From a virus (lineage: Duplodnaviria > Caudoviricetes), in IMG/VR virus record IMGVR_UViG_3300011115_000575, positions 1,708-65,707 of that record: a DNA stretch of 64,000 nucleotides; one strand, written 5' to 3'. Shown one piece after another: positions 16,645 through 64,000 of this stretch (position 1 is its first letter; each line of letters opens with the position of its first letter). The notes under the pieces were generated by a model, which was given only the letters and a program-made list of their open reading frames with translations, was not told the origin of the DNA and did not search any database. The translations under genes and the position numbers were made by a program.

Positions 16645-17312
16645 AAGTATTAGAATTGTTTGCCGGATCCCGTTCAATAGGTAAAGCTGCTGAAGAATTA
16701 GAGATGGAAGTATTCTCATCTGATCTCTTACCATTTGATGGGATAGATTACGCTTGTGACATCAGAGAGTTTGATTTAGCAAAGCTACCATTTGTTCCCG
16801 ATGTAGTATGGGCATCCCCGCCTTGTACGGCATTTTCTGTTGCCTCAATAGGCAGACATTGGAAGGGAAGTAAGAAAGGCTCTTATGTGCCATTTACTGA
16901 CTCCGCAAGACTTGGCTTAGAATTACTTGATGCAACACTAAAAGTAATTGAGCAGATTAATCCGAAGTTTTTCTTCATTGAAAATCCACGAGGATTAATG
17001 AGGAAGATGCCTCAGCTTGAGCACTTTTATAGGCACACAGTTACTTATTGCCAGTATGGGGATACGAGGATGAAGCCTACAGATATTTGGCACAACCAAG
17101 TGTCGTATCAACCAAAGCCACATTGTAATAATGGAGACCCTTGCCATACTCCTGCACCAAGAGGTTCGCAGACAGGAACACAAGGATTAAAAGGAGCTTA
17201 TAATAGAAGTAAAATACCACACGAGTTTTGCTTAGAAGTAATGGAGTTCTGCAAGAAACAGAATGAAACTTATTTACTTTTTCCCGCCACGAGACCTTTT
17301 ATCGCCCGCTGA
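16641..17312 (+). CDS. DNA cytosine-C5 methyltransferase
   Basis: LELFAG (motif I), ASPPC (motif IV), IENP (motif VI). Confidence 0.85.
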   Translation: MKVLELFAGSRSIGKAAEELEMEVFSSDLLPFDGIDYACDIREFDLAKLPFVPDVVWASPPCTAFSVASIGRHWKGSKKGSYVPFTDSARLGLELLDATLKVIEQINPKFFFIENPRGLMRKMPQLEHFYRHTVTYCQYGDTRMKPTDIWHNQVSYQPKPHCNNGDPCHTPAPRGSQTGTQGLKGAYNRSKIPHEFCLEVMEFCKKQNETYLLFPATRPFIAR

Positions 17313-22000: not shown

Positions 22001-25000
22001 CAAACCATTGCTTATAAAGCCCCAAATATTTACTATTAAGGAAATCTTTATTAAACCATTTAAGGAAACTATCATTTTTACGAGCTTCCATAGAGGCACG
22101 GGCAGACTGAAGTAAATCAATGTCTATTAAATCAGCTTTGTCAACTCCTGTTTTTGCACGAATAGTTTGTTGCTTTGTAATCTTAATTGCATTGGCATCG
22201 AATACAACATAATTCATTAACCCATCTTGTCTTCCTCCTTGAGCATAATATGTAGGAACTCTAATTCCATCAACTCCAGCTTGCTGTAATAACCAAGAAG
22301 CCATTTGTTGTGCTGTAGTTAAAAAATTATCTCCAGATTTATTAGCATAAGGCATAGATGCGAATCGATACTGAATAGATTCATACACATCAGACCCATT
22401 TTGAGACAAGAATTGCAACCCCTTACCTCCTCCATTATATTCGTTTAAAATAAAATTAATTACACTTAATGAGTCTTTAGTATATTGGTCTTTATAAGAT
22501 AGCATCTGCATTGCCCTTTGCATACTTAAAAGCCCCGCAAACGCAGTTGTTGCTGCTTGTTGATTATAAGGACCAGAACGATGCCAATCAAACCATACTC
22601 CATCACTAACTCTTTGCCCTGTAACGTGAGCTGTATAATGATTTCTTTCTCCGAATGCATTATACAATTTCTCTCGATTAGATTTTGAAATACTTAATCC
22701 AAGAAATCCTTTATTATCTTCTAAGAATCTTTTCCAATCTGCAAGTCTTGTATTTGGATTCTGCAATATTTTATATGCTTTTTTCTGCAAATCCTTTCCT
22801 AAAAAATCAAGGTAATTTAATCTATTCATTTTATTCCCTTGATTACTCATAGCATATGCATTAGCAACATCAAAGTCTTCACTTAAATAGATTCCCCAAC
22901 CATACGCTTGAGCACCTTCTCCTGTTCCAATTTTCTGATTATTAAATCGGGCAAAACTCCAAGGGGATCCGTGATAAAGGATTCTCTTTTGAGATATGAA
23001 TTCTACTTTATTGTCAGAACCATCTGTAACTTCTTCCTCAATTTCTTTTGAAATTACTTTCTCAGAAACAGGCATCATTTTATAATTAGCTTTTGCTATC
23101 TCAGACTTTGCCTCCTCTGTTGGAGCAAAACCAATTCCTTTTGCCACATTTGTAGCTACATTAGGGGCTTTTGGTCTTAACAACCCTTTAGGAGCAAGAT
23201 ATTCTTTTTTGAATTTAGACTTAACTGTGCCTTTTAAATCAGAGTATGTTCTTGTTTCAAAGGACTTATCACGAGATTCTTTTTCATAGAACTTATCTTC
23301 AGTATAGATATCTCTAACCATTTGATCCCTCTCTGCTTCAGTTAATTTATTAGGGTCTATTTCCGATTCTGGCTCTGCAAATTTTGCAAAGTTTTCGTTT
23401 ACTCCATATAATCCATCAAGAGTGAAATGATTAGTACCAGCAAGTTTAGCATTAAACATATCGTGAACAATACCTTTAGATTGCAACGCTTCAATTTGGT
23501 CGTCACGTTCTATTCCTTCTGGCAATACATCTAATTCAAATCCACCTACTACATACCCTCCTTTGTCATTATTAATTAAATCATCGGTTAATATTGTATT
23601 ATCTCCGTATTCTTTAAGGAAATTATAAAAACTATAATCAATTTTATTAAATGCTATTTTACTATATCTTGTCCCGACATCAGTTTTTGTGCCTGAATTT
23701 TTAGGTAAAATCCCAAGTCCAATAACTTTTCTTACATCGAATGTAGTTTTGTCAATATATTCTTGCTGCAAATCCGCTAATACTTTTTCAGACATATTAG
23801 GAGTAACCTTATTGAATATATCAATTATTTGCTGTCTTTCTGTTTTATTCTTTGCTACTTTGCTAACAGTTGTACTTGTATTGATAAAATTAGCAATAGC
23901 TTCCTTTGATTTAATTAAATCCTCTTCACTTGTATTTGCAATTTGAGATAATCCTCTGAATAAATATTTTACTCCGTAAGCATTATTGATTGCAGTAGAG
24001 GGATTTTGAATCATAATTAAAACTGCAACTTTCCCTTGTCCGTAACTATTAAATGCAGCAGTATATGTACTTTTTACTGTACTTACATTTAAACTTGCAA
24101 ATCCAATTCCATCTTTTACGTTCTGAGCATTTAATGAAAATCCAAATCCTCCAAAGATTGGCTCTCCTTTGCTGTCAACACCGTATCCTGTAGCATCACT
24201 TGTAATAATAACAACTCTTCCATTATATTTCTCAACAACATCGTTAAGGCTCATAATAGGATGAGATACAGTCTCAAGCATAGGAATAGTTTTAGGGAAT
24301 TCATAATCCCCTATACGTTTTTCGTTTATTTCATCTAACGGAGTATAATCAATTTCAGATGGGAATGGTATAGCAATACCTTCATCATATGTCTGGTCCG
24401 AAGATATCTTTTGACTAATCTCATCCGATGAAGCAGTTACACCTTCTTTAGTAAATTGCTTTGTGAATTCCATATTCACATCTGTTCCTTCTCTTAAAGA
24501 TTTTGCAAATGATTCAAAGAATTTAGCAAGTTCTTCGGTTGAATTTGTGGTAGCACCTACTTTGTCAGCAAGCTCCATTAGTAACTTATTATTAATCTTA
24601 GCAGCGTACTTTTTAACAAGCTCACGAAGCCCCAATATAAATTTTTGACCAATTGAGCGATTTAAAGCAAAGTCTACTTCAACAACAATATTTTCTCCCG
24701 CCTCATTTACTTTTGAAAATGATAATCTTTTAGCAGTAAGTACCCCAAGTAATTCAGATAAGAATTCTTCTGCCATTACATTTTCTCCTTTTTCTGCATA
24801 TAGATTAGAGAAGTTTTGTAAGTAAGAAAGTTCAGCCTTAGAAAGCATCCCTTTTAATTTATTAACCATCTCAACAAATGCTGCTGGGTCAGAATCTCTT
24901 ATAAACTTAACTGCTTCGTGGAATATCTCATGAGGAACAGTTGCGTCATCTGCAATAGATATGTTGATATGAACAACACCACTATGCTGTAATCCCATTG

Positions 25001-27563
25001 ATCCTTTAGCAGCTTCTCTTGCCCTTTTAGCAGTAAATCCTTGAGCAACAAGCCCCTTTGCCATTTTCTTTTCACTATCATACAATATGATTTGAGCATT
25101 TGGGCTAAAGCTCTTTAATGCTTTATAGTAATTAGCAAAGCGTGATTTTTGATTAGGAGTAAGTTTTCCTAACACTTCATTACCTTGTACAGATTCAATA
25201 TCTTCGCTAACAGAATATCCTTCATTGGATGCCTTAACTAAAGATTGTCTTGCTTGAACCGCTTGTAAGTAGGAAACAAGTTCATCATTATTAGTATTAA
25301 ACGTTTTCTTACCCTTTGTATCAGTAATTGTTGCTGAAATCAATTTCCCATCTTCATCACGTTTAATTTCACCAACCTCTAATGTGCCTTTAATTTTAAA
25401 TGGCTCATTAGATTTGTTTTCGCTTTCCGATTTATAGGCAAATGATTTACGAACAGGAGCCATAGTTACATCTCCATTTTCATCAACGCTTGCTCTCAAT
25501 GAAATATTTCTACCATCTTCAGTTTTAAACTTAAAAAGTTCTCCTTCGAATCTATTATTACGCACTTTCTTTGACCTCTCAGCCCTTAACTCTGAGTTAG
25601 TGGTACGATTGGGTGTTGCGTCTGCTTCTGTCAGCAATTTGCCATTCTTTGTAATCTTATCATAAGACTCTAATGAATCTAATCTAGAGTATACATCTTG
25701 CAATACATAGTTTCTTTCTTGATTAGTTAATTGGTCATCAGCAATAACGCTCGCCTCTAAATCATACAAAGAAGAGGTAGCTTTATTTACTTCATTAATG
25801 TCAACTAATTCCCCTGCTTGAATACTGTCAAGTAGGTCTTGATTATTTTCTGTAAATCCGAGATAGTAGTTATTTTCTGTCAAGTAATTGGCAGCTTTCT
25901 CTCTTGATAGTTTTTGTTGTTCCTTAACCGCAGCAGAGCTTCTTGAGTATATTGCATCAATATTCTCTTTCATTATAGCATCTACCTTAGCTTTCTTTTC
26001 TTCTATAATAGCATTTGAAGCTGCGACTAAACTTTCATCATGAAGTTCTCTTTGCGAGTCTTCTTCTGATCTAATTTCATTTAATGTATTAATTACTTCT
26101 GCCCGCTTGTTTACATTTTCAATATCAGAAATTAACCGATAGTTGTCATATGTTGCACCAGCATTAGAATCTCTAATATCTTTAATTTTATTAGCTGCTG
26201 ATTCTCGAATTTCTTTTGAAAAACTTTCATTGTCTGCAACTTCTTTGTAACGCTTAATAGATTGTTCTTGCTCAGAAGTTAATTTTACCCGTGAAGCCCG
26301 TGCCGCTATACCACTAACTACTCCACCAGAAGCAGCTCCTAAGACAAATGCATCTATAGAACTTTGAATTAATTTATTATACTCTGCGGGATCAAATTTA
26401 TTATCAGCAACTCTGTCTATTACAAAACTACCAACATTAGCAATTATTTCTTCTACCCCTTCTTCATTAGCTCCAGCAAATGCTTTCTTAACAATTCCTC
26501 CATATCCACGAATAAGGGCTTCTTTTGTAGCTTCTTTCCCTTCCGAAGAAATTATCTTTCTTAAACTATTAAATGCTTCTATATCTGTTCTAAATATAGT
26601 TTCTGTTAATCCCTCAACAATACCTTTACCTATTGATACTAAAGCATCTTTCCCTGATATCTCTCCATCTTTAGCATACTCTTCTCCTAATGAAGCTCCC
26701 GCTCCCATTAATCCTGCTCCCGTAAATACGGCTCCAGCGGATCCTCCCGTTAAACCAAGTGCTACAATTTGAGGCATTTGTTGAAGAGAACTTAACCCAA
26801 GATTAATAAACGCATCTCCTACTTTTCCTTCTTGAAGTAATTCAGTAAATGTTTTATCTACGTCTGCGTTAGCAATTCCATAGTCAGTCTTAGCTTGCCT
26901 CATAAATGAGTTACTAACATTTTGAAGAGTTTGAGCTTGTTCATACAATGCACCAGCTACTCCTTCTGACGAGGCTACCTTTGTGTTAACTTGGTCTTCT
27001 TTGCTAATTAAACCTTTTGCACGAGCTCCAATATTTTGCATGAAATCTGCTGCACCACCAAGAATATTTAAAGCGGTTGCTCCTACTGTTCCTATCCCTC
27101 CTGATATTAAAGACTCCACCATTGGGAGTGTTCCCGTTTTATCTGCAAGAAAAGAATATCCTCGTGTAGTTATATTTGATGACAATAAATTTGATGTAAC
27201 AATATCATCAATAGCCGCACGTTGCTTTAACCCTTTTTGATAAGCCAATTTTTCTTCGGCTGTCATTTCATCCGAGTCTCTATCGTAAATTCCTTGTTTT
27301 TTAGTTAACTCTTGAGCAAAAGGAGCTGTACCTAACCCTGAATGGATAGGTTGTGCTTTTGAAAAATAATCTGCAATATCAGAAAATAACCCCCCAGAAT
27401 CTTCCTGCCCAGATAATGCCGTAACGTCTTTTTTTTTTGAAATAGTTTCGTACTTCGAAAAGTCAATACTACTTAAATTAGAAGAAGTATCAGTAGAAGG
27501 CTTAGATTCACTAACGTCCCCGTATTTTGAAAAATCTATTGGTTGAAGCCGTTGTTTAGACAT
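19098..27563 (-). CDS. Giant polyvalent virion/ejection protein (HExxH metallopeptidase, ART-like and LPD38-like domains)
   Basis: PHEIFHE; LYHGSP..F..F....IGTGEGAQAYGWGIYL; C-terminal MDY..GG...PYFN region; last large gene of the tail operon. Confidence 0.8.
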   Translation of the reverse strand: MSKQRLQPIDFSKYGDVSESKPSTDTSSNLSSIDFSKYETISKKKDVTALSGQEDSGGLFSDIADYFSKAQPIHSGLGTAPFAQELTKKQGIYDRDSDEMTAEEKLAYQKGLKQRAAIDDIVTSNLLSSNITTRGYSFLADKTGTLPMVESLISGGIGTVGATALNILGGAADFMQNIGARAKGLISKEDQVNTKVASSEGVAGALYEQAQTLQNVSNSFMRQAKTDYGIANADVDKTFTELLQEGKVGDAFINLGLSSLQQMPQIVALGLTGGSAGAVFTGAGLMGAGASLGEEYAKDGEISGKDALVSIGKGIVEGLTETIFRTDIEAFNSLRKIISSEGKEATKEALIRGYGGIVKKAFAGANEEGVEEIIANVGSFVIDRVADNKFDPAEYNKLIQSSIDAFVLGAASGGVVSGIAARASRVKLTSEQEQSIKRYKEVADNESFSKEIRESAANKIKDIRDSNAGATYDNYRLISDIENVNKRAEVINTLNEIRSEEDSQRELHDESLVAASNAIIEEKKAKVDAIMKENIDAIYSRSSAAVKEQQKLSREKAANYLTENNYYLGFTENNQDLLDSIQAGELVDINEVNKATSSLYDLEASVIADDQLTNQERNYVLQDVYSRLDSLESYDKITKNGKLLTEADATPNRTTNSELRAERSKKVRNNRFEGELFKFKTEDGRNISLRASVDENGDVTMAPVRKSFAYKSESENKSNEPFKIKGTLEVGEIKRDEDGKLISATITDTKGKKTFNTNNDELVSYLQAVQARQSLVKASNEGYSVSEDIESVQGNEVLGKLTPNQKSRFANYYKALKSFSPNAQIILYDSEKKMAKGLVAQGFTAKRAREAAKGSMGLQHSGVVHINISIADDATVPHEIFHEAVKFIRDSDPAAFVEMVNKLKGMLSKAELSYLQNFSNLYAEKGENVMAEEFLSELLGVLTAKRLSFSKVNEAGENIVVEVDFALNRSIGQKFILGLRELVKKYAAKINNKLLMELADKVGATTNSTEELAKFFESFAKSLREGTDVNMEFTKQFTKEGVTASSDEISQKISSDQTYDEGIAIPFPSEIDYTPLDEINEKRIGDYEFPKTIPMLETVSHPIMSLNDVVEKYNGRVVIITSDATGYGVDSKGEPIFGGFGFSLNAQNVKDGIGFASLNVSTVKSTYTAAFNSYGQGKVAVLIMIQNPSTAINNAYGVKYLFRGLSQIANTSEEDLIKSKEAIANFINTSTTVSKVAKNKTERQQIIDIFNKVTPNMSEKVLADLQQEYIDKTTFDVRKVIGLGILPKNSGTKTDVGTRYSKIAFNKIDYSFYNFLKEYGDNTILTDDLINNDKGGYVVGGFELDVLPEGIERDDQIEALQSKGIVHDMFNAKLAGTNHFTLDGLYGVNENFAKFAEPESEIDPNKLTEAERDQMVRDIYTEDKFYEKESRDKSFETRTYSDLKGTVKSKFKKEYLAPKGLLRPKAPNVATNVAKGIGFAPTEEAKSEIAKANYKMMPVSEKVISKEIEEEVTDGSDNKVEFISQKRILYHGSPWSFARFNNQKIGTGEGAQAYGWGIYLSEDFDVANAYAMSNQGNKMNRLNYLDFLGKDLQKKAYKILQNPNTRLADWKRFLEDNKGFLGLSISKSNREKLYNAFGERNHYTAHVTGQRVSDGVWFDWHRSGPYNQQAATTAFAGLLSMQRAMQMLSYKDQYTKDSLSVINFILNEYNGGGKGLQFLSQNGSDVYESIQYRFASMPYANKSGDNFLTTAQQMASWLLQQAGVDGIRVPTYYAQGGRQDGLMNYVVFDANAIKITKQQTIRAKTGVDKADLIDIDLLQSARASMEARKNDSFLKWFNKDFLNSKYLGLYKQWFERNVNIRKELEKAEMVYAMQMMYNKAGASQFAQLKFGKYRKEIYGGLNKNGVAIVDSVTQLRRVIAIDANFDNQRNALLEQADAVKQQIEDENAIITNPKSTSEEKAIANESINSLKNDLAKLMRKAKTKERPEHGKHNDVNDKNKKIVSNKESAEASLAKLEKKIGVEAYAEFNKRADTYFKAFSDLLKYKLDSGLITEATYEMFKDYDYQPRNFLRFAYGQLYEDANGNMVKETPLQSNSFVNRGSMLSSDELKKISGGDMDYLDADSARLLQSALVTAEIRVSTNKALKALAEDSKLANYGFIKEAEYEKYKDGTIKLDSDGTPKFIAPTDNRFINMVYKVDGKKYAFQLKNTEETPLADEFNDIEMRDLKGEQYKFWSKWLGAGIMKTFATGINVAFPITNIPIDVISQIHLTDIYEGTIAERYQQAMMGTLEMAKRLTAAEFNLGDKSEISNLIYEFAETGGLMMSLTREYSPQMEGNWGKIVDGLGTFGNISELASKLNAYQTVKDRLVDQYYEKNGFEAREEDLEKIKTEAAYKSRAAMDYHRGGTSSKWLDGFAPYFNVMMQVSKISASYISNNKVEFGKKIGGAGLFVMAVTMYNMMVAAGDYDNDDVQRDIINNLVIFNTYKNADGTRGYTKVAVPPTVKWFLNRFQHIAEGVYLKEVLQDPKRIEKWQERTSIWKETSNMFAPRFGSILPPVAKGMIEYGFNYDIWRSKQIVEQDKNRKTSPFLEGVKNKNVAEFWKAIAATDFGKGVELSPAKAQKFADDIFPLTNPLISMGYSLIDKSVNQFTEMPESYRSKFNKENAWTSVPSSIGDAIKDRFKGTTNPDIRYDNPEYAKIKMGESDKLFMMHDKIKSMVDDGVSMHDIRVYAKSQGREYVQGIQNYALNLKKKDKIQYKIYEPDYFAMAFAPDARAKAEIMVEFEKTNEIPNMELYRKDLRRFGILNSNVRKIYEELKSKEK

Positions 27564-35898: not shown

Positions 35899-36572
35899 TA
35901 TCTCTCATCGTTTCGCTGGTTACCATCTTTTATTTGTTCCGTTTGAATAAGAACAGGATTTTCTAATGTTACCCCTAAGTACATTAAAGTTCTTGCATAA
36001 ATGTCACCCAAGAATCTATCTGAAATATCTAAGTCTACAGAACCAGAAGATGTATAAGTTATATTACCATTAGATGTGGTATAAGCATAAACTGCTACGT
36101 CTGGCTTCTTTACATAAACAAGTGTATATGCATAGTTGCCTGATACGGGTACAGGAGAAAATTGAATCTTAGGAGCGTTTGTGCTATCTAAATAAATAGT
36201 TGCCGCAGGGTATGAAGTGCTTGGGGTTATTATCTTAGAGTTTGTTACCTCTAGAAACTGGTCCCAATTATATAACGTACCTTCAATTAAATTGCCATCA
36301 ACTGTTATATAAACAGTTAACCCCTCTAAATAATCAGCAGGTAAGGACTGAATGCCTGTCGAAGAACCAACTGTAAAAGAAGTTCTTTTGGTTAGTAAGT
36401 GGTCGTAGTCAAAATGCTTTGTCTTCTTGAACTTAAAAACAACGGCTGAAATCCAATCGGAAACAGCTCTGTTTAAGTACATATCTATGTCTGCTGGAGA
36501 AGCAAATCCCCCTTTGTTCTTTTTTAGAATGCTTCTAATAAACTTATGTGCTTCATTGATTGAAACTGCCAT
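35898..36572 (-). CDS. Tail ring/adaptor protein
   Basis: LPADY and Y.KKP motifs of podovirus adaptor proteins. Confidence 0.6.
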   Translation of the reverse strand: MAVSINEAHKFIRSILKKNKGGFASPADIDMYLNRAVSDWISAVVFKFKKTKHFDYDHLLTKRTSFTVGSSTGIQSLPADYLEGLTVYITVDGNLIEGTLYNWDQFLEVTNSKIITPSTSYPAATIYLDSTNAPKIQFSPVPVSGNYAYTLVYVKKPDVAVYAYTTSNGNITYTSSGSVDLDISDRFLGDIYARTLMYLGVTLENPVLIQTEQIKDGNQRNDER

Positions 36573-46576: not shown

Positions 46577-49500
46577 TTATTTATTTTCTAATGCTTCTAT
46601 TCTATTAATTAAAGAAGTGTTTTCTGCTGATAATTCTTGGATGGCTTTGACTAGGACAGGTACTATTTTAGAGTAATCTACACCTTGCATATATTCGCCA
46701 TCTTTTTCTCCTGTAACTGCATAAGGTATTACTTCTTGTAGTTCGTGAGCTAACACACCATCCATACGCATATTAGAAGATTTATATTTATAATCATAAA
46801 CTTTAATTGCAGATATTTTTTCTAAACCTTTAATTTCTCTTAAATCTTCTTTGAGTCTATAATCAGATGTTACGTTATACGATGTAGTTGAACCATTTGA
46901 TGTTATTGAGCCTACACCAGTTGCTCCTGCTTGAAAATAATTAAAATAATATGTACCCCCATTATTTATTGCAATTGATGCATTACAAAATCCTCCTGAT
47001 GATATTTGTTCAATAAAATATCCATCAGTCCCACTTGAACTAACTTGGACTCTAGCATTTTGTCCTCCTGTTGCAGTTCTATTAATCAATAAATTCCCCC
47101 CACTCGTAATTCGCATTTTCTCACTTTGACTTCCTCCTCTTGTCCAAAATTGCAAATAACCACTATAATCACTACCTGTTGCATTTTCTTTTAATCCACT
47201 AATTCCTGCCCAGTTTGCACCTGCTGAATTAGATGCTACTGCTCTACCTCCAAAAGCAATAGAACCACCTTTATTGATAGCCATTGCATCATTACTTTGA
47301 ATAGTTAAAATAGCAGTTAAATCACTTGTTGAAGGTCTTGATGGACCAGTAAATAGTCCTTGATAAATTGCTTCTCCAGATGTATTAACTGTTCCATCTG
47401 AAATATCTAATGTTGCTCTTGGCGAACTCGTTCCAATACCTACGTTGCCAGCAGAAGTAATTCGCATACGCTCTGTGGCATCAACAGAAAATATATTTGT
47501 TGTGGTTGCGTTAAATGATGTCGCAGATACACTACTCGAAAACGTGGCTGCACCACTCACCCTCGCAGTACCAACAACATCTAATCTGTATCCTGCATCA
47601 GTAGTTCCCCCTAACAATAAATTACCATAAATAGCAGTAGTTACCGTAGATGAGTTTCCAAGTACGGTTGTATTTGAACCAAGACCTACTTGTCCAGCCG
47701 AACCATTATATCCCGCTATTACAACTTCGTTTGTGTTTCCACTTGCAGAAGAACGAACATCGTAACCAATGTAAAGTGAATTGCTTGATGTTTGATTGGC
47801 AGTAGTAGAAGAACCCGCGTAACGACCTGAATTAAACCCTAAAAATATATTTTGTTGTCCACCTGTTGAAGAATATCCAGCATTTTGTCCAATAGCAGTA
47901 GTACCAGAAACATATAATGAATTATATAAAGCATAACTACCTATTGCAGTATTATTAGGTCCTGTAGTATTAAGTCTCCCAGCTTGATTTCCTATAAATG
48001 TATTATCATACCCACTTGTATTATTTGTACCAGATATAAAGCCAATAAATGTATTTCCATTTCCAGTATAATTACTATTACCTGTTGAATTACCAATAAA
48101 TGTATTCCAATAACCACTTGTATTATTTTGACCAGCATTCGAACCAATAAATGTATTAGAATCTCCTGTTGTATTTCTTCTACCAGCATTTAGTCCTATG
48201 AATGTATTACTTATAACACTACTCGCCCTCACCTCAATAATACTTACACCACTACTATTAGCAAATGTACTTGATGCCGAACTTGTACCAATTGATTTAA
48301 TTGACAGTACGATAGTACCATCAAAATCTGTCGTAGGAGTAATTGTTAATACCGCAGTAGATGAAGCTAATAGACCATATGCTCCTGTTGCAGTTGCACC
48401 TGTCAAAGTACCTCCATAAGCAATACTAATACTCCCCGCCGTTCTACCCGTGATGGTATAGGTTATTTGGTAATATGTACCACTAACCGCTGCTAATGTA
48501 GTAGTCAAAGGAACTACCGAACCCGTGGTATGAGTATAACCACCAACGTTTAAGTTAGTACCCGCTAATGTCCAGTTGGTACCTGTTCCTGTTACTGCTG
48601 CTAATTCTGAACCTAATGGAGCAGTGTCCGAAGCCGTAGTACCAATGAAACGAGTAGTTCCTGCGACATCTAATCTGTATCCTGCATCTGTGAATGTTCC
48701 ACCGTTTTGTAGGGTAAGGTTTCCAGTAGTTCCAAATATTTGAAATTTTGTCGTTATAGGGTCAGTGCCTCCATAAGTCGACCCTTTTGTTAAAATTTGT
48801 AAATTACCACTAAAACTTCCATTATCTATTGATGCTAATCTAACACCTGGTAAACCATTACCAGCATCTGTGTATGTAAAAAAATCAATAGCACTTCCAG
48901 CTCCAGAAAATCCTCCAGCATTTACTAAAGCTAATTGAGTTTTAATAGCACCACTTGCATTATTTGAAAGAGTTAATGGAACATATGAATAACCAACTAA
49001 TGATGTTGGTACTTGACCCATTAAAACATTACCTGTAAATCTTGCACTTAATCTTGATATACTTGTAAATGCACCTGTTGTAAACGTAGGATTAACATCT
49101 AAACCAACTAATACATCACTATTTGCAGAAGCAACTAATGTAGGAGTTTGATATATTCCTCTTGCTATTGCTGAAGCAGCAGTAACGCTATTACTAACTA
49201 ATACCCCTGTAGTTAAATCTTGAATAGAACTATTCCCTATCGTACCAGTTGCAGTAAACTTAGGCACATAGTTAGCAGTACCTGCTCCACTTATGCCATT
49301 AACACTTGCTGTGTAGTTAATGCTCTGTACTTGGTCTCCTACTGTTGAAGCTACTGTTAGGACAAATGTTGTCCCATTAGTGGCTGTAAACTCTGAAGAG
49401 GTTAACTTTGAACCATTAACAAATACATCTATAAGTCCTACTATATACCCATTAGTAACTGTGAAGGTAGTCTGTGCTGCTGTGGCAGTAAAGTCTTGTA

Positions 49501-52500
49501 CGTTTCTAGATGTTGGCAAAGCTGCAATACTTGACGTATAGTTTAATATAGTCACAGCATCTCCTGCCAATAGCCCAATTCCTAATACTACTGTCGTGCC
49601 ATTTGTAGCTGTGTAGTCTGAAGGCAGATATCTAACACCATTGACATATACATCTACTAGTCCTACTACATAACCTCCCGTAATTGTGAAGGTTGTTTGG
49701 TTTGCAGTTGCAGTAAAGTTCTGCTCGTTTCTTGCAGAAGGATTTGTTGAGATAGTCCAAGTCCTGTCAGCAGATAAGTCGTAGGTAGTACCATTAATCG
49801 TAAGTGTACGAGTTGAGGCAACACCACCTAATCCCGCTAGAGTATAGGTAGGGATGTTTAACGTGTTGGACACTAACGTTGCGGCACCTGAGCTTCCTGT
49901 AGTAGTTAAACTTGTAATTCTATTTGTATATGCAGTGTCCCAATTAGTAGCACTCGTTGTAGCAGGAATAACGTACCCACTTGTTAGGCTAAATATTCCC
50001 GTAGTGTTGGTATATGTTAAACCCGTTGCAGTAGAAGACAATGCCGTTAATGCAATGTAGCTACTTGGATTACTTGACAAGTAATAAGTATTTGTATCTA
50101 AAGAAAATGTACCCGCCGCAGTCATCTTAACAAAAGAGGCACTTACATAAGCAAGTCCTGACAAGGAAGTTAAGTTGGTAGCCAACGGTTGCCCTCCCAA
50201 TCCACTTAGTGTGTAAGTGGGTACGTTAAGCGTGTTGCTTACTAGTGTTGCAGAGCCAGAGCTTCCTGTTGTTGTTAGTGCCGTAATTCTGTTGGTATAT
50301 GCCGTGTCCCAATTTGTTTGGGATGCCGTCGTTGGCAAAGAATATCCTGTAGCAAATCCTAGTGTTAAGTTTCCTGAAGTTGTTACGGATGTTCCATTTG
50401 TAAATCCTGTTGGCACAGTCAGTCCCACACTTGTTACTGTTCCTACGCTCCAAGTCCTGTCGGCAGTTAAGTCATAAGCCGTACCATTAATAGTAAGACT
50501 TCTTGCTGCGTTAGCAGGTGTGTATCCTAGTATAGTTGCAATAGACTTATTCTTCCATAACTGAGTTGATGTTTCCCAAAATAATCCATCATTATTTAAT
50601 GAACTACCATTAGGTGCTGCAACATTATGTAATTCTCCTAGTTCATATCCATTCTGTACCTTAACCTCAATCTGTCCTAATGTTGGGTGTGAACGAGTAA
50701 TGATACCAATATAAACTAAATGGGTAGGTGCTAATGTTTTAGTGGCAGTATATGTACCTGCAACCGTTCCTGATAAATATAGTTGTTGTCCCTCTGTAAA
50801 TGCAGAAGTATCTAAGCCAGTTAAATCCCCTGTCATCACAACGTAACCTGTCGCATTATTTGCGACATCTGCTTGTAATAGTCCAAAGGTTTGTGCTGAT
50901 GTAGCATCACCTGTTGCAATAGCCTTGCTAACAATAGGATTATTGCCCGTAGCACCACTAATATAAACAACCGTTCCCTTTGTTAATGTTGCACCTGTTT
51001 GATTTCTTACAAGTCTAACTAAAGAACCTGACTGCCCAGCAACAGGGAAAGTAATTAAACTTCCATCACCTGCCACATATTGAGCAGTTGTTCCTGTAGG
51101 GGTGTTGTACTTTAAGTTTAATGCGTTCTGTAAGTCAGTCTGATTAGATAACGTTCCTGTAATTCCACCCCATATTGTTCCAACCGTAGGAGAAACTTCA
51201 ATGTAAGTAGTTCCAGACCATCGATATATTTTATTTGTATCTAATGCAACATAGATTTTGCCTGTTGTACCACTCGCAGGAAAACCTGCAAGATTGGTGT
51301 ACTCCAAAACATCATCTACATAAGAAGGTAATTGAGTTGAAGGTACTAAACCACCTCCATCTAATGAAGCATATCCATTAGCAATTCCTTTGTTTGCACT
51401 ATTCTCTGGAGTATAACTTAAAGCAGTTGTTACTTGTCCACTTGTAATTCCTGATATATATCCCGCAGGATTCGTTGCGTTGTAGGGGGTATACGTCAAC
51501 GCAGTTGTAACATCTCCACTCGTTAAGGTGATTGCACCAGTTCGTGTATTAAAACTCGTCACACCGCCTTGATAAGCGGGGATGTTTAGAACTCCCGTAG
51601 TAGAACTATAGGTAGCTGCTCCACTTGTTCCTGTAGTGGTAAGACTTATAGCAGCTCGTGCCCTAGCGTCAGTATAATATAGGTTAGTAACCTCTGTAAC
51701 CAAGGCAGTAGTGTAGTCTCCTGAAGCAGGAGTGATAGCACCTGTCCTAGTATTAAACGAGGTAACACCACTAGCGATAGTCCAATTCCTGTCAGCAGAC
51801 AAGTCGTAACTAACACCGTTAATGGTAAGACTTCTATTGTTTGGTACAGGTATGTAAGTTAATGCAGTAGTAACGTCAGAACTAGACAGTACAATAGCCC
51901 CCGTCCTAGTATTAAACGAGGTTACACCTCCAATATAAGAAGGTATGTTTAGTATACCCGTAGTGTTGTCGTAAGTAGCTGCACCCGTAGTACCCGTAGT
52001 AGTAAGACTTATAGAAGTCCTCGCCCTAGAGGGAGTGAAATATAGGTTAGTATTCTCAGGGACATTTAAAGTATTTAAAGTAGCCAAGGCTCCTGCTCCC
52101 GTGATGTATTGAGCTGAAGTACCTGCTGCGGTTATTGCAAGTGTACCCGAAGCGGTTATAGGCGAACCTGTAACAGTAAATGCCGCAGGTGTAGTCAATG
52201 CTACGCTTGTAACAGTACCTGTGTTGGCAGTAGCCCCCGTAGCAATACCATCTAACTTAGTTTTATCAGACGCACTCATTGCTCCCGCACTTCCTGAAGT
52301 AGCCGCAGCTAAAGAAAGAGCCTGAGTAGAGATGCTTAGTCCGTTAGCAGTACCAATCGTTACAGGGTTATGAAACCTTGAATCGTTCCCTTGAGCAAAT
52401 GTATTTAAAGTTGTTCCAAATGTAGGCGAGTAGGTAACATTGTTGTTGGTGACAATAGGGACTAATGCCGCACTACCAGACGCAAATGTTAACGTACTTC

Positions 52501-53470
52501 CTAACGCAACGGGGTCTGTATTCGTCCCGTCAGATATAGTAAATGAGTTTGTTGTAGAAGCCGCCAACTCAAATGGCAGCATCTTAGTGGCTTGGTAACT
52601 ATAAGTTCCTGTGTAAGGCTCTAGTATTGACAATAACTCCCTTAGTATAGGCTCTGAACCGTCCTGAGTGGAGGTCTGATACCTTGTAATCAAGTGAGAA
52701 TATAACGCTATAACTAAGTCATACTGTTCACTTAGTATATTAAACTGAGTGTCATTAGTTTCCTTATACGCATCTATAATTCCTCTGTAGGTATTAATCT
52801 TAGCCACTAACTCTAGTTGGTTGGGGCACTTCTTAATACTAAACGTCTTAGAGAATGTTCTTGAGTAATAGACTGTCAGCCAAGAGTTACTGCTATGTGT
52901 GTACGTTATCGACACAGCACTTGTAGGAGTATATACCCCCTCGTAGTAGTTTACTGCTGAGACAACGTTAATTGTATTAGACGACGTAGAAGACACTGGA
53001 GTCTGAGTTGATGCCTCAGAGGTGCTAGGAAAAGAACTAGAAAGAGTCCTAGTAAGTGTTCCCGTAAAGCTACCAATAGGTGAGTAGGACGTAGCGTCCC
53101 TAAACACTACCTCTGGAATAACAACGTCAGACAAGTTTGTAATCCCGTTACTTGGCTCAATCCAATTAAAGTCAAACTGTCTTGATAATGGAGTTTGTAT
53201 TGTAGAGGTGTTGTCAGTTACAGCATAACTAATCGTATAAGCACCTGTAATTACATTGTTGTTTATGTCAGTTACACAAGGAATATCAATAGAGCCACCA
53301 GAAGCAGTTAAGTCAGGATTAGCAAAGTCAGGTAAATTCCTAACTGAACCGTCAGGAAACTCTACTTTAAAACAACCCTTGCCGTATGTAAATCCTGTTG
53401 AGGTATCAGTTAGTCGAATAACACGAGTTGTTGCATTTATTCTAAACTGTATATTGAAGTTTACTGCCAT
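46577..53470 (-). CDS. Long tail fibre (2297 aa) with internal repeats and S74 chaperone
   Basis: Repeated TTTG.SGAAT / VTSFNTRTG modules, NTFIG beta-helix repeats, SDYRLK C-terminus. Confidence 0.85.
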   Translation of the reverse strand: MAVNFNIQFRINATTRVIRLTDTSTGFTYGKGCFKVEFPDGSVRNLPDFANPDLTASGGSIDIPCVTDINNNVITGAYTISYAVTDNTSTIQTPLSRQFDFNWIEPSNGITNLSDVVIPEVVFRDATSYSPIGSFTGTLTRTLSSSFPSTSEASTQTPVSSTSSNTINVVSAVNYYEGVYTPTSAVSITYTHSSNSWLTVYYSRTFSKTFSIKKCPNQLELVAKINTYRGIIDAYKETNDTQFNILSEQYDLVIALYSHLITRYQTSTQDGSEPILRELLSILEPYTGTYSYQATKMLPFELAASTTNSFTISDGTNTDPVALGSTLTFASGSAALVPIVTNNNVTYSPTFGTTLNTFAQGNDSRFHNPVTIGTANGLSISTQALSLAAATSGSAGAMSASDKTKLDGIATGATANTGTVTSVALTTPAAFTVTGSPITASGTLAITAAGTSAQYITGAGALATLNTLNVPENTNLYFTPSRARTSISLTTTGTTGAATYDNTTGILNIPSYIGGVTSFNTRTGAIVLSSSDVTTALTYIPVPNNRSLTINGVSYDLSADRNWTIASGVTSFNTRTGAITPASGDYTTALVTEVTNLYYTDARARAAISLTTTGTSGAATYSSTTGVLNIPAYQGGVTSFNTRTGAITLTSGDVTTALTYTPYNATNPAGYISGITSGQVTTALSYTPENSANKGIANGYASLDGGGLVPSTQLPSYVDDVLEYTNLAGFPASGTTGKIYVALDTNKIYRWSGTTYIEVSPTVGTIWGGITGTLSNQTDLQNALNLKYNTPTGTTAQYVAGDGSLITFPVAGQSGSLVRLVRNQTGATLTKGTVVYISGATGNNPIVSKAIATGDATSAQTFGLLQADVANNATGYVVMTGDLTGLDTSAFTEGQQLYLSGTVAGTYTATKTLAPTHLVYIGIITRSHPTLGQIEVKVQNGYELGELHNVAAPNGSSLNNDGLFWETSTQLWKNKSIATILGYTPANAARSLTINGTAYDLTADRTWSVGTVTSVGLTVPTGFTNGTSVTTSGNLTLGFATGYSLPTTASQTNWDTAYTNRITALTTTGSSGSATLVSNTLNVPTYTLSGLGGQPLATNLTSLSGLAYVSASFVKMTAAGTFSLDTNTYYLSSNPSSYIALTALSSTATGLTYTNTTGIFSLTSGYVIPATTSATNWDTAYTNRITSLTTTGSSGAATLVSNTLNIPTYTLAGLGGVASTRTLTINGTTYDLSADRTWTISTNPSARNEQNFTATANQTTFTITGGYVVGLVDVYVNGVRYLPSDYTATNGTTVVLGIGLLAGDAVTILNYTSSIAALPTSRNVQDFTATAAQTTFTVTNGYIVGLIDVFVNGSKLTSSEFTATNGTTFVLTVASTVGDQVQSINYTASVNGISGAGTANYVPKFTATGTIGNSSIQDLTTGVLVSNSVTAASAIARGIYQTPTLVASANSDVLVGLDVNPTFTTGAFTSISRLSARFTGNVLMGQVPTSLVGYSYVPLTLSNNASGAIKTQLALVNAGGFSGAGSAIDFFTYTDAGNGLPGVRLASIDNGSFSGNLQILTKGSTYGGTDPITTKFQIFGTTGNLTLQNGGTFTDAGYRLDVAGTTRFIGTTASDTAPLGSELAAVTGTGTNWTLAGTNLNVGGYTHTTGSVVPLTTTLAAVSGTYYQITYTITGRTAGSISIAYGGTLTGATATGAYGLLASSTAVLTITPTTDFDGTIVLSIKSIGTSSASSTFANSSGVSIIEVRASSVISNTFIGLNAGRRNTTGDSNTFIGSNAGQNNTSGYWNTFIGNSTGNSNYTGNGNTFIGFISGTNNTSGYDNTFIGNQAGRLNTTGPNNTAIGSYALYNSLYVSGTTAIGQNAGYSSTGGQQNIFLGFNSGRYAGSSTTANQTSSNSLYIGYDVRSSASGNTNEVVIAGYNGSAGQVGLGSNTTVLGNSSTVTTAIYGNLLLGGTTDAGYRLDVVGTARVSGAATFSSSVSATSFNATTTNIFSVDATERMRITSAGNVGIGTSSPRATLDISDGTVNTSGEAIYQGLFTGPSRPSTSDLTAILTIQSNDAMAINKGGSIAFGGRAVASNSAGANWAGISGLKENATGSDYSGYLQFWTRGGSQSEKMRITSGGNLLINRTATGGQNARVQVSSSGTDGYFIEQISSGGFCNASIAINNGGTYYFNYFQAGATGVGSITSNGSTTSYNVTSDYRLKEDLREIKGLEKISAIKVYDYKYKSSNMRMDGVLAHELQEVIPYAVTGEKDGEYMQGVDYSKIVPVLVKAIQELSAENTSLINRIEALENK

Positions 53471-59273: not shown

Positions 59274-61283
59274 TTAAAACGGAAATACATCTCGTATTTC
59301 ATATAGTTTTTGTTGTTGTTCAATCTTTTGAGTAAACTTTGATTTACTCGATGCAATTAAGGTATAACCACTCGCCATTGCTGCATCAAATTTAGTTGTT
59401 TTATTTATATCAAAGTGCAACCAATCGTTTAAAAGTTTTGGAAATTTTACTTTATGTAAATTATCCATTATATAACTTTCTGTTTCCTCGGCTATCTGTT
59501 GGTGCACCTTTGTGCTAGCAGATATACCATACTTAGTAGAATTGGGCATTTTAATTAAAAACTTTTCGTATCCTCTATATTCAAAGTACTTAATTAAACC
59601 AATTTTTTGATCCTCAGAAAGTATTTCACAACCAAAAAAATGGCACAACTTAATCATATCCTCATAAAATATTTCTGCTTTATCAGGTCTATTTAAGTAT
59701 TCAATTAAAAATGTTTCACTCAACTCATCTGTTGCATCAAATCTCCTATAGACATATGCTGCTCCATCAGAACGTTCATTGCTTGTTGTTATCGAATGGT
59801 CAAAGGGGTCAACTCCAATTGCATATTTTGTTTTAGCTTTTGGTGTTTTCTTTGTGCCATACTCCTCAACTTGGTTATATGAATCAACGTCTTGTGGGTT
59901 TACTTCTTTTATTACAAGAAACTTACCCGTAGAACTTTCTTTAAAAATAACCTTGCTATCACGAACTCCATCTTCCCAGATAAATTCTCCTTGCAAATAT
60001 AATTCTTTTTTATCAATCCACGATATTGTTTCAATTTGCCTATTGATTGCCATTGCATCATATAAGCAAGTCTCTCCTTCACTAAAGAATGCCTCCTCAA
60101 TAGTAAATGGGTTTTTACGAATATAAGATGCTAATGCTCTACTATCAGATGACAACGCATCCCTTGCATTTATATAATAATCTTTTGCTTTTTCTTCGTC
60201 TGCAAATCCATACTTATCGTAGAATAGTGTTTTATAGGCGGGCATAAAGTATTGGTATAGCCCTGACATTGTTCTTCCATTCTTATCTCTTTTGGATTGG
60301 TCTGATGCCATCCAAAGTTGTTTAAAAGATGCTCCCCCATCTTCCATCTCCTCAACAGTAGTAGTATATAAAGCCTTACCAATAATATTTTCTTCTTGTT
60401 GTAAACAAAATTGAACCACTTGATGACGGTCATAAACATCAACATTCTTTGTTTTGCCCGCTTCATCCGCAAGGTATCTATGTAATTTCGTTCCATCGTA
60501 TGAGAATTTATCTGCTGACTTAAATGTAATGCTTGACTCAAGTTCTATCTTTTTATCAAAATCAAAATCAGATGCACCCCTCTTATTTGTTTTAAAGAAA
60601 CGAAGTTCTCCTTTAGGGGTCATACCTTTTTCAGTATCGTAAATCGGAATAAAGAAATCGGGTAGGTATTTAAATGGCATTACAACACCTTTAGCAAAAA
60701 CGTTTTCTTTTGCATCTTCAAACGTTTTACTTTGTATACCTGCGTTTTTATTTCTACTACGGGAAGTAAGCTCAAATAAAAAAGCACCCGCCCTCATTGT
60801 CTTACCCTGTCTACGTTTTGTTACCTCAATCATTCCTAGACTGCGTGGGTCTTGGCATACATATTCTAAAAAGTAAAAAAACTCTTTGTCCGTAATACGA
60901 AAGTCAGGATACCCTACATCTATTTTCCAATGGACCAGATAAAAATAATGAAGCCCTGTAATATAAGTGGCATGACCATTGTTATAAAACCAAAATCCAT
61001 TTAATCTTCTATCCCACTCTTGATTTCTATAGTTCTGAAGCTCACTACTTTGATAATCAGCATTTGTTTTTTGAGATAACATCTCACGCTTTCTTTTTGC
61101 TTCGTAATCATCGGGTGGCAAAGGTCTCTCCCAATACTGATTTTCCTTCCGCATAGACCGCTTAACCGGATCCCTTTTTTCCCATTCATTTGTGATAATA
61201 TTATATACCCACCCAATAGGAGGAACATTTACCGTAATCCCATGAATATCAAGTTGTTTTGAATTTTTATGAACTCTATACAT
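59274..61283 (-). CDS. terL: Terminase large subunit
   Basis: KRRQGKT Walker A, DEAGK Walker B, GVDPFD nuclease motif; likely start ATG 61283. Confidence 0.92.
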   Translation of the reverse strand: MYRVHKNSKQLDIHGITVNVPPIGWVYNIITNEWEKRDPVKRSMRKENQYWERPLPPDDYEAKRKREMLSQKTNADYQSSELQNYRNQEWDRRLNGFWFYNNGHATYITGLHYFYLVHWKIDVGYPDFRITDKEFFYFLEYVCQDPRSLGMIEVTKRRQGKTMRAGAFLFELTSRSRNKNAGIQSKTFEDAKENVFAKGVVMPFKYLPDFFIPIYDTEKGMTPKGELRFFKTNKRGASDFDFDKKIELESSITFKSADKFSYDGTKLHRYLADEAGKTKNVDVYDRHQVVQFCLQQEENIIGKALYTTTVEEMEDGGASFKQLWMASDQSKRDKNGRTMSGLYQYFMPAYKTLFYDKYGFADEEKAKDYYINARDALSSDSRALASYIRKNPFTIEEAFFSEGETCLYDAMAINRQIETISWIDKKELYLQGEFIWEDGVRDSKVIFKESSTGKFLVIKEVNPQDVDSYNQVEEYGTKKTPKAKTKYAIGVDPFDHSITTSNERSDGAAYVYRRFDATDELSETFLIEYLNRPDKAEIFYEDMIKLCHFFGCEILSEDQKIGLIKYFEYRGYEKFLIKMPNSTKYGISASTKVHQQIAEETESYIMDNLHKVKFPKLLNDWLHFDINKTTKFDAAMASGYTLIASSKSKFTQKIEQQQKLYEIRDVFPF

Positions 61284-61315
61284 ATTATAATGATTGGTAA
61301 ATGCCTTTTCTAATT

Positions 61316-61798
61316 CTATAGCAAACTGCACTTACTGTTAGATTTATTTTTTTTTGCTAATTCTATTCTTGATGAATAAACAATTCCACTTGATTTATCT
61401 AGAACAGGCTTTGTTGTAAACATATTTTTTACGTTTAATTTTCCTTTTTCCTTTGAAACACTTCTTGCTTTATTAGTTACATAAGATGTACCAATCCTCC
61501 AAGAATGATTAATATTTTCAGACGGAGTGCACCATTCAAGATTTTCTACTCGATTATCGTTTTTTATTCCATTTATATGGTTTACTTCTTTTTTATTTAA
61601 GGGATTTTTAATAAACGTTTGTGCTACAATTCGATGTGCGGTATAATTTTTGCTCAAACCGTTTTTTGAAAGATTAACAACAACATAAGATTTTGATTTA
61701 TTGCTTAACACTTTTAATGTTTTTTTATTCCTTACATTCCCCCTACAGCTAACTTCATACAATCCTTCGTAATTCACAATATCTTTCCAATTTTCCAT
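61316..61798 (-). CDS. NUMOD4-HNH homing endonuclease (3' frameshift likely)
   Basis: ENWKDI..YEGLYEVS..G.VR; HRIVA..F; VNHINGIK.DNRVENLEW. Confidence 0.88.
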   Translation of the reverse strand: MENWKDIVNYEGLYEVSCRGNVRNKKTLKVLSNKSKSYVVVNLSKNGLSKNYTAHRIVAQTFIKNPLNKKEVNHINGIKNDNRVENLEWCTPSENINHSWRIGTSYVTNKARSVSKEKGKLNVKNMFTTKPVLDKSSGIVYSSRIELAKKNKSNSKCSLL

Positions 61799-61815: not shown

Positions 61816-62373
61816 TTATAAGTTAGATATTGCCTCAGGGGTCATACTTAATATTTTATCTTTTTTATCGCTATTATCTCCAAACAGTTTCTCTTCATAA
61901 GCCTCAATCCTTTTAATAATAGCATCGCATTCTCCCATTAACTTTGATTTAATTTCTAATGCTTGTAGTTTATCCTTATCATTTTTAAAATCTTTAATAG
62001 GATTCAATAACTCTTGCTGATACTGCCACAACACCTCTTCGTTAGCGGCTAATATTGACCACACCTTGGACTGCTGATACCGAAGATAGGCATTTACATA
62101 ACCTACTATATTTGGATGGCTTAAATCAAAGATTTGTTCATTAGCTTTTAACCCTACTAATTCAGCACACTCCTTCTTCCTATCTAATAACAAAGGTATC
62201 TTTAACCTAAGCGGAGACTTGCTATCATATAACAATATTACATACTTAATAATTGCTTCTTCAGTTGGAGATACTTTACCAAACAACTGCTCAATAATTT
62301 TCTGTTTAGCAAAGTTCTTTGCAAATGGGTCTATTGTTAAAACCTTAAAATCTTCTTCAGTAAATAATGCCAT
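61816..62373 (-). CDS. Putative terminase small subunit
   Basis: Position upstream of TerL, size and helical composition. Confidence 0.5.
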   Translation of the reverse strand: MALFTEEDFKVLTIDPFAKNFAKQKIIEQLFGKVSPTEEAIIKYVILLYDSKSPLRLKIPLLLDRKKECAELVGLKANEQIFDLSHPNIVGYVNAYLRYQQSKVWSILAANEEVLWQYQQELLNPIKDFKNDKDKLQALEIKSKLMGECDAIIKRIEAYEEKLFGDNSDKKDKILSMTPEAISNL

Positions 62374-62483
62374 AGTATATTATATTTTATTTCGGCGGGC
62401 TGGGGAGACCCGAAATCTTTTTTCTTTTTTTTCTTCTTTTAGGAGTGTTAATAATTATTTGAAAATAAATTGAAAATAATTTG

Positions 62484-62616
62484 CATTATATTTTTTTATA
62501 TTAACTCTATTATTATATTTAATATTATGGTGATACTATAGCATCACCCCCCTGCTGCTATAGCATCACCCCCCCTGCTTGCCGAGTATCACCCCCTGCT
62601 GCTATAGCATCACCCT
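62484..62616 (-). repeat. Second, inverted copy of the origin (four iterons plus AT-rich tract)
   Basis: Reverse complement matches 7481-7597, including CTCGGCAAGCAGGGGGG and TAATAATAGAGTTAATA. Confidence 0.85.
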
Positions 62617-63271: not shown

Positions 63272-63539
63272 ATTTTGTCTGTTTGGTTTATAAATCCAAA
63301 GTTATAGAATCATATTCATTTTTCATAATGCTTGCTTCTAAGGCAGTATTTTCTGCTGAGTAAAGTATATTGTTGTAAAAGTAATTATGCTTCAGCAGAT
63401 GGCAAGCAAAGCATAGTGTTGCTAACGTGTCAGCATTTTGTTAACGTTTATTTTCTACTAGCATTTTTTTTATACTGTGGGCTTGGAGTGACAAGGTTAT
63501 ATATATTATTGGGATCCGGTAGAAAAAATCCGCGAAATC

Positions 63540-63860
63540 AGAAAATTTGACCGAGTAGGTATTGAATTACATTTCCAAAAACCTAATTTCCGAGATCTCA
63601 AGGCACTTTTTATACATAAAATATGTTTCAACATATATACTGGTTTACGAGGGATCAATACTTGTTGTCTCAATTACTTTTGCCCAAGCAGATAGATAAG
63701 AAGAACGAACAATCCGATTTGACATAGTGCATAAAACAAAAATGTATACATCCAATTACTTTTCAATTCAATTACATTTCCATTTTGATACAAATTATTT
63801 TAGAACAAAAATCTGACCAAGCAAAATCCATTCAATTACATTCTCTTCACTACAAAATTT
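63540..63860 (+). repeat. Non-coding region with repeated TCAATTAC(A/T)TT motifs
   Basis: Exact copies at 63670, 63768 and 63832; variants at 63563 and 63753. Confidence 0.55.
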
Positions 63861-64000
63861 TCTATACTACATGAATAGGAATTTAAAACAAAAGTATTAC
63901 CTTTACATATGAGCAATTCAGCACGACATATGGAATTAGTTAACACATTGATTTTCAATGGTTTAGATGCTAATCCGTCATGCATCGTTAAACTGGGTTT

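Follow-up and report, generated by a model that had tools for sequence, protein, structure and literature searches.

Why does a phage genome that holds an iteron-type origin inside its replication initiator gene carry a second, inverted copy of that origin in the non-coding gap ahead of its packaging genes? The question is raised by a 64-kb stretch of DNA, hereafter the window, which comprises bases 1708-65707 of a 65,707-bp viral record rated complete by CheckV. The initial annotation had claimed that the initiator's own origin recurs, inverted, upstream of the packaging genes, and both the sequence and the arrangement in 18/18 genomes bear this out. We propose that 62485-62615 is a second, selectively maintained copy of the replication origin, with four predicted initiator sites and a melting tract, and put the probability of this reading at roughly 70% on the strength of sequence comparison.

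The source of the window is an uncultured freshwater phage. The public sequencing runs that hold it mostly bear freshwater-type metagenome labels (lake, river and drinking water), in addition to two viral runs and one soil run. Its nearest isolates by large terminase (TerL) are Flavobacterium and Cellulophaga phages with ~31% identity. DNA searches of phage collections with both origin regions recovered no relatives, only short matches to the HNH and helicase genes. Furthermore, a tblastn search with the initiator returned only partial and distant matches (28-47%) in Vibrio, Lactobacillus and Enterococcus phages, and there is therefore no cultured relative in which the layout could be tested.

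The ends of the record overlap, as its final 634 nt (window 63367-64000) match its first 629 nt (G000:C1:1-629) with 88% identity, and two relatives with terminal repeats (G006 and G007) are colinear with the window across the end junction. Based on the overlapping ends and this colinearity, the genome is circular or circularly permuted. The record was most likely assembled beyond its own start via a strain variant, which would place the real genome length at ~65.1 kb. On a circular or permuted genome the two origin copies thus lie ~10 kb apart and bracket the early region, instead of being separated by 55 kb as initially assumed. Plus-strand genes extend from the window start to ~17.3 kb and minus-strand genes from 63271 down to 17274, so that the two arms converge near 17.3 kb. 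Along the ~10-kb arc, copy 2 is followed by the GroES-like gene, ~640 bp of divergent non-coding DNA, the early genes of the plus strand and, up to copy 1, the N-terminal half of the initiator gene. The plus arm also encodes an exonuclease (10375-11148, phrog_298, 7.3e-22) and two DNA methyltransferases (3638-4285 and 16641-17312, both plus strand), which lie in the early arm and are assigned to one PHROG (phrog_757). The minus arm proceeds from the GroES-like gene through a 185-aa ORF, an HNH endonuclease gene, TerL and the portal gene to very large virion proteins. Two of its ORFs are very large (19098-27563, minus strand, 2821 aa; 46577-53470, minus strand, 2297 aa), and the latter and its neighbours contain several internal direct-repeat families (D1-D7 and D9). 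GC skew, whose analysis had been suggested as a check, tracks gene orientation in the window; it flips at the divergent region and at neither origin copy, and is thus uninformative with respect to replication.

The initiator is built from an N-terminal winged-helix/HTH domain, a linker that holds copy 1 and is variable among aligned relatives, and a conserved C-terminal domain (residues 139-222, matched by phrog_9474). The helicase gene overlaps the end of the initiator gene, and the ORF list contains no separate loader ORF between them. Initiators are modular across the window phage and seven relatives (L106, L110, L111, L117, L118, L125 and L127). In their N-terminal DNA-binding domains, at least two unrelated types (phrog_270 and phrog_2562) are represented, and a short C-terminal I-P-D/E-N/Q-Y/W motif together with a FEEFW-like motif after the AT-rich tract recurs in all of them.

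Features of the two origin copies and their surroundings in the window
Feature	Coordinates	Strand	Description
Replication initiator, 233 aa	7179-7880	+	Pfam HTH_36 1.3e-11 (residues 16-69); phrog_270 'replication initiation protein' 7.4e-34
Origin copy 1	7481-7596	+	Inside initiator gene 7179-7880
Copy 1 iteron array	7481-7549	+	Three 22-23-nt iterons; encodes initiator residues ~101-124
Copy 1 AT-rich tract, candidate DNA-unwinding element	7550-7596	+	Encodes Asn/Lys-rich linker
DnaB-type replicative helicase	7874-9307	+	Pfam DnaB_C 2.7e-66; phrog_19 1.7e-70
Large terminase TerL	59274-61331	-	phrog_6681 1.5e-87
HNH/NUMOD4 homing-endonuclease gene	61316-61798	-	Inserted between 185-aa ORF and TerL
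185-aa ORF, putative small terminase	61816-62373	-	By position only
Rest of intergenic region	62374-62484	-	Box CCTAAAAGAAGA at 62432-62443, A-rich run, GC-rich box at ~62390-62415 just before the start of the 185-aa ORF
Origin copy 2	62485-62615	-	Non-coding, in 241-bp gap 62374-62614
Copy 2 AT-rich tract, candidate DNA-unwinding element	62485-62528	-	On the 185-aa-ORF side of the iterons
Copy 2 iteron array	62529-62615	-	Four iterons, the first overlapping the TAG stop codon of the GroES-like gene
GroES-like gene, 218 aa	62615-63271	-	Pfam Cpn10 4.6e-9; phrog_13932; first gene of the minus arm, reads into copy 2

Direct reading of the sequence confirmed three iterons in the initiator gene and four non-coding iterons in the distal copy, as initially described. 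The GGGTGAT words start at 7484, 7507 and 7529 in copy 1 and, on the minus strand, at 62609, 62588, 62565 and 62543 in copy 2, with a spacing of 21-23 nt in the latter. A G run precedes each iteron unit, which forms the imperfect palindrome GGTGAT-N8-ATCACC, and the period of 21-23 nt corresponds to about two helical turns. The claim that both copies have the same spacer variants and AT-rich tract also holds: a MAFFT pair alignment gave 80% mean column identity, and the order of the spacer variants (TATAG / CTCGGCA / TATAG) is common to both. Inverted repeat pairs between the copies span 79 nt (I1, 77% identity), 39 nt (I2, 79%) and 27 nt (I4, 96%), with I2 pairing the AT-rich tract of copy 2 with that of copy 1. 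Within the complete 65,707-bp record, copy 2 as query matched no site other than its own and copy 1 (the latter with 85% over 93 nt, E=1.7e-23), and all six genomic occurrences of the core word GGGGTGAT fall within the two origin sites. An Rfam search yielded one sub-threshold match to mir-16 (22.6 bits against a gathering score of 36.5), which is a chance match, as the iterons are palindromic. In a nearest-neighbour stability ranking of non-overlapping 40-mers over the 64-kb window, the AT-rich tract of copy 2 takes first place as the least stable (-34.5 kcal/mol, compared with a mean of -48.2), and the tract of copy 1 comes third (-36.3 kcal/mol).

Following the local direction of transcription, the AT-rich tract comes after the iterons in both copies, and the tracts therefore point outward from the early segment. 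The copies are inverted because one transcription-relative polarity is kept in a genome with divergent arms. The earlier statement that each copy points along its own transcription arm is upheld in 18/18 genomes, in which the polarity relative to the local genes is the same. As the tract of copy 2 is conserved although free of coding constraint, it argues for a complete origin over a bare binding site.

Inverted repeats of ~115 nt with ~80% identity could also stem from a neutral duplication or from misassembly, or could be a substrate for inversion. Copy 2 is spanned by contigs of three runs, each from a different study (X1 record 1, X3 record 21 and X4 record 27, where X1 is possibly the source sample of the record), and the independent assemblies of the relatives share the layout; copy 2 is thus not an assembly artefact. 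Its presence in 18/18 genomes despite the turnover of iteron types speaks against a neutral duplication. Both observations also run counter to the possibility, initially allowed for, that the copy might be absent in relatives or arise from misassembly. Inversion of the intervening segment, as the initial annotation had envisaged, is unlikely, since it would cut the initiator gene in two and a single arrangement was found in all 18 genomes. Taken together, we consider these three readings of copy 2 barely credible.

The strongest evidence for selection on copy 2 comes from relatives. IMG/VR contains a clade of ~62-66-kb relatives, from which 18 genomes were compared, namely the window, 10 contigs with initiator and TerL loci, and seven relatives with divergent arrays. 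Both copies are present and inverted, 6-11 kb apart, in 18/18. In the contigs with both loci (10/10), the initiator-internal array is matched in the gap between the GroES-like and TerS-like genes in the same gene-relative orientation. The iteron sequence varies between lineages, and the two copies inside one genome agree. The seven further relatives have wholly different gap repeats, of the TTCGAAAATCGAAC, ATGCAAATGCA, CAACGACCGTT, CAGACAGTCAGAAAAC and GCCAGATTTCTGGC types. A helicase-based search for related loci gave only three loci, and these divergent replication modules were instead reached via the distal array of each record. When each of these records was searched with its own distal array, an inverted second copy was identified 6-11 kb away in 7/7, in the middle of a 229-237-aa ORF. 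Five of these seven ORFs were scanned and are initiators of the phrog_270 or phrog_2562 type, and the other two contain a conserved C-terminal FEEFW/FEKFW motif. One origin copy is thus located inside the initiator gene in 17/17 relatives examined. The initiator copy was looked up for TerL loci except L027, L031-L035, L042 and L043, which are represented by the distal array only; initiator-only short contigs (L003, L008, L010, L014, L015, L017, L020 and the 43.7-kb contig of L018) were left out.

Across ~10 iteron types and at least two types of initiator N-terminal domain, the distal array agrees in every case with the initiator array of the same genome. The co-variation of the distal copy with the initiator iterons that had been put forward as a check was therefore found, with matching iteron types in 18/18 genomes. 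A matrix of GC-containing 9-mers common to the initiator genes and distal gaps of the 18 genomes forms blocks by iteron group with ~0 cross-group sharing, and the own distal copy is best or co-best in 12/18 rows and 15/18 columns. The iteron groups follow the clusters of initiator N-terminal domains. The N-terminal domains of L117 and L110 are 84% identical and their iterons differ, and iteron specificity is therefore not simply readable from domain identity. The type of AT-rich tract co-varies as well, for example with GTAAAG-type repeats in both copies of G002-G005. At the distal site, the gap after the GroES-like gene measures 208-316 bp in all TerL loci with full upstream sequence (25/25) and contains repeats and an AT-rich tract; the repeats were detected by TRF (period >=18) in 18/25, and the shorter-period repeats of the other 7/25 were recognized by eye. 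Among 53 distant TerL relatives (36-38% identity, L048-L100), no such array was found by TRF.

Some distal arrays (L005/L024 and L021) can be mosaics of spacer variants from different relatives; that of L021 begins with a window-type iteron, followed by its own type. Such mosaics suggest recombination or gene conversion between phages or between copies, and the co-variation could be maintained partly by gene conversion between the copies. Since non-contacted spacers are also common to both copies of the window, co-variation alone is no proof of binding. An exchangeable cassette extending from origin to origin was considered as well; the mosaic boundaries between the window and G007 are not sharp at the origin copies and give it no direct support.

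The distal copy had been placed between a GroES-like gene and TerS. The first neighbour is confirmed by its Cpn10 domain, whereas the label of the second is based on position, with no family or fold match. The GroES-like gene is located directly upstream of the array in 25/25 relatives, where it opens the late-side arm. Its product is about twice the length of GroES, with the Cpn10 domain at residues ~145-215 preceded by an N-terminal extension. An ORF of 185-194 aa lies between the array and TerL, likewise in 25/25 relatives. The window's 185-aa ORF has no Pfam or PHROG match even at E values up to 10, and its best PDB profile match has E=0.18. AF2 predicts an all-helical fold containing two long helices (pLDDT 73.6), for which there was no Foldseek match below E=3. 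The HNH/NUMOD4 gene is not part of the origin system: besides the window, an HNH-sized gap occurs in only 1/25 relatives (L023), and contigs of runs X2 and X3 skip 526-531 nt at this site, indicating a presence/absence polymorphism.

Immediate proximity to the presumed small terminase gene raises the alternative that copy 2 is the pac site read by the small terminase and that its likeness to an origin is incidental, as pac sites are commonly located immediately upstream of the small terminase gene. However, TerS-like proteins with 96-98% identity adjoin entirely different arrays (L037/L039, L038/L041 and L026/L047), so the terminase does not determine the array. In every genome compared, the arrays correspond to the initiator gene of that genome, and by sequence comparison the distal array follows the initiator. 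A better pac candidate is provided by separate conserved elements between the array and the gene. In 25 related loci inspected by eye (among L021-L047), the elements follow the same order, with a CCTAAAAGAAGA-like box, an A-rich run and, immediately ahead of the start codon, a GC-rich CGCCGCC-like box; a short hairpin often precedes them. In the window the exact 12-mer CCTAAAAGAAGA occurs once, and a degenerate-pattern scan for the GC-rich box found nothing, the pattern being too strict for the window's version. A CGCCGCC-like box is striking in a genome with 34% GC. The series of elements at 62374-62484 is a candidate pac site or late promoter, and it is highly improbable that the iteron array itself serves as the pac site.

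Alternatively, copy 2 might be a regulatory initiator-binding site, either limiting copy 1 through titration or handcuffing, in the manner of control iterons on plasmids, or acting as an operator or roadblock between the GroES-like gene and the late operon, in which case late transcription would depend on initiator occupancy or fork passage. Such a function would fit the placement of the array, which starts where the GroES-like gene terminates and precedes the first ORF of the packaging operon by 110 bp, a position that recurs in 25/25 relatives. In several relatives of group A, the AT-rich tract is followed by a sequence that was recognized by eye and presumably resembles the Bacteroidota -7 box. 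On the other hand, control arrays such as P1 incA are devoid of an unwinding element and copy 2 keeps a candidate one. A sigma-70-type promoter scan, which does not model Bacteroidota promoters, returned 9 sites compared with 12.7 expected from shuffled sequences, along with 0 terminators. A solely regulatory role thus appears unlikely.

We regard it as very probable that the initiator binds copy 2. Our favoured reading, that copy 2 is a working second origin, has somewhat better than even odds, as copy 2 has more iterons than copy 1 and the most meltable tract. According to this model, initiator dimers would bind both arrays and the adjacent DnaB-type helicase would be loaded at the AT-rich tracts. 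Forks from copy 2 would leave co-directionally with the late arm and those from copy 1 along the early arm, and forks from both copies would meet where the arms converge, near 17.3 kb. Barrier and regulatory roles are not mutually exclusive with origin firing.

In a further scenario, copy 2 would be silent as an origin and the tightly bound initiator would form a replication-fork barrier. A fork from copy 1 would travel ~55 kb and stall at copy 2 from the AT-rich side, and recombination enzymes would process the stalled fork in a switch from theta to rolling-circle (concatemer) replication, as proposed for oriR of Bacillus phage SPP1. The same model has been published for SPP1, the closest known system: as described in the origin-related parts of two SPP1 papers, theta replication proceeds from oriL, and oriR bound by gp38 is proposed to stall the fork and trigger the concatemer switch (PMC6316719, PMC3485210). 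In these papers, from 2012 and 2018, the role of oriR as a barrier, and not a demonstrated firing, is still put forward as a proposal (PMC6316719, PMC3485210). The window phage encodes an exonuclease that could take part in such processing, and copy 2 is located directly before the packaging genes. Furthermore, contig starts vary among the relatives that have terminal repeats, suggesting permuted genomes and hence headful packaging, which needs concatemers. Binding sites alone would suffice for a barrier, but copy 2 has kept its AT-rich tract in the absence of coding constraint; this tract is the least stable 40-mer of the window and co-varies in type with that of copy 1. In addition, neither an annealing recombinase nor a Holliday-junction resolvase was identified among the 20 early ORFs scanned, most of which had no match at all. 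We therefore hold a pure barrier to be a doubtful, though serious, alternative. A barrier function of the initiator-bound copy 2 like that proposed for SPP1 oriR would nevertheless be compatible with the second-origin reading.

More speculatively, and with rather low confidence, an origin at the head of the packaging operon may be an adaptive and recurrent design that couples replication to packaging or late expression, with the early segment perhaps serving as an exchangeable specificity cassette. Forks or helicase from copy 2, or a fork broken at the bound array, would generate a starting point, either a replication intermediate or a DNA end, for the synthesis of concatemers, for late transcription and for the first cut at pac. 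With two origins facing outward, replication would also run in the direction of transcription on either arm.

Irrespective of these roles, the layout is kept across the whole phage family, and the dual-origin design extends to phages whose nearest isolates infect Flavobacteriia. The present comparison adds the depth of the co-variation of both copies across ~10 iteron specificities. The clade represents a natural experiment, in which the distal copy of each genome examined keeps pace with the initiator array through ~10 specificities and at least two types of N-terminal domain. Such co-variation argues strongly, on evolutionary grounds, that second origin copies are under selection rather than accidental. 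Moreover, the clade supplies matched initiator/site pairs for binding and replicon tests, and because copy 2 immediately precedes the packaging genes, a connection of replication with packaging becomes testable. Literature on phage iterons and two-origin systems and on Flavobacterium phage origins, with subscription journals largely outside its scope, contained no description of the origins of this clade.

Among known systems, control arrays of plasmids and of the P1 incA type resemble the window phage in that two arrays of sites for one initiator, predicted sites in the present case, are located on one replicon. Iteron control arrays of the incA type have no unwinding element and adjoin the rep gene. 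In contrast, copy 2 has its own AT-rich tract and is located ~10 kb away in a genome with a lytic-type map, and no partition or integrase genes were identified among the ORFs scanned, a scan that was not exhaustive.

The origin of phage lambda consists of dyad-symmetric iterons in the linker of the O gene, followed in the transcribed direction by an AT-rich tract. The window phage has the same organization, with GGTGAT-N8-ATCACC units (residues ~101-124) between the HTH_36 domain (16-69) and the C-terminal domain (139-222), and its initiator has weak matches to PHROGs labelled 'replication initiation O-like' (phrog_678, 4.9e-7; phrog_391; phrog_345). A further likeness is the modular swapping of the N-terminal domain and iterons with retention of the C-terminal part. 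Lambda has one origin and a separate loader, P, and to our knowledge no second copy of its origin, whereas the window phage has two copies. Transcription near the origin affects initiation in lambda (PMC3017604), and both copies of the window likewise lie within a transcribed gene or where such a gene ends.

The closest known system is the oriL/oriR pair of SPP1, bound by gp38 (G38P). The origin-related parts of the SPP1 papers locate oriL within gene 38 and assign oriR to a late-region gap without coding sequence; ~12-13 kb of the circular map separates the two, and each origin is described as direct repeats with an AT-rich unwinding element, bound by gp38 (PMC6316719, PMC3485210). In the SPP1 genome (NC_004166), nt 373-441 of gene 38 (35950-36018) have a same-strand match at 4878-4948, and this strand carries all of the annotated main genes. 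The window phage shares with SPP1 the location of one copy within the initiator gene and of the other in non-coding DNA between late-region genes, the combination of direct repeats with an AT-rich tract (here a predicted unwinding element) in each copy, a comparable distance (~10 kb here, ~12-13 kb in SPP1) and a common polarity of both copies relative to transcription. In both phages a DnaB-type helicase gene follows the initiator gene, and the host replisome is used, as far as the cited parts of the SPP1 work describe it (PMC6316719, PMC3485210). The initiators themselves show no detectable similarity by BLASTP (E=0.35 against G38P), and both match phrog_428 (6.4e-12 for the window initiator, 1.4e-48 for G38P) and phrog_186 via the N-terminal domain, as weak hits. 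The two systems differ in host phylum, given that the nearest isolates of the window phage are Flavobacterium and Cellulophaga phages, and in the two divergent arms of the window phage, hence its inverted copies. Furthermore, copy 2 immediately precedes the first packaging gene, whereas oriR of SPP1 follows gene 7, ~4.9 kb downstream of pac, and the window phage is devoid of a separate helicase-loader ORF like SPP1 gene 39. With these differences, the window phage is a well-supported member of the known SPP1 oriL/oriR design, and its layout is not new in kind.
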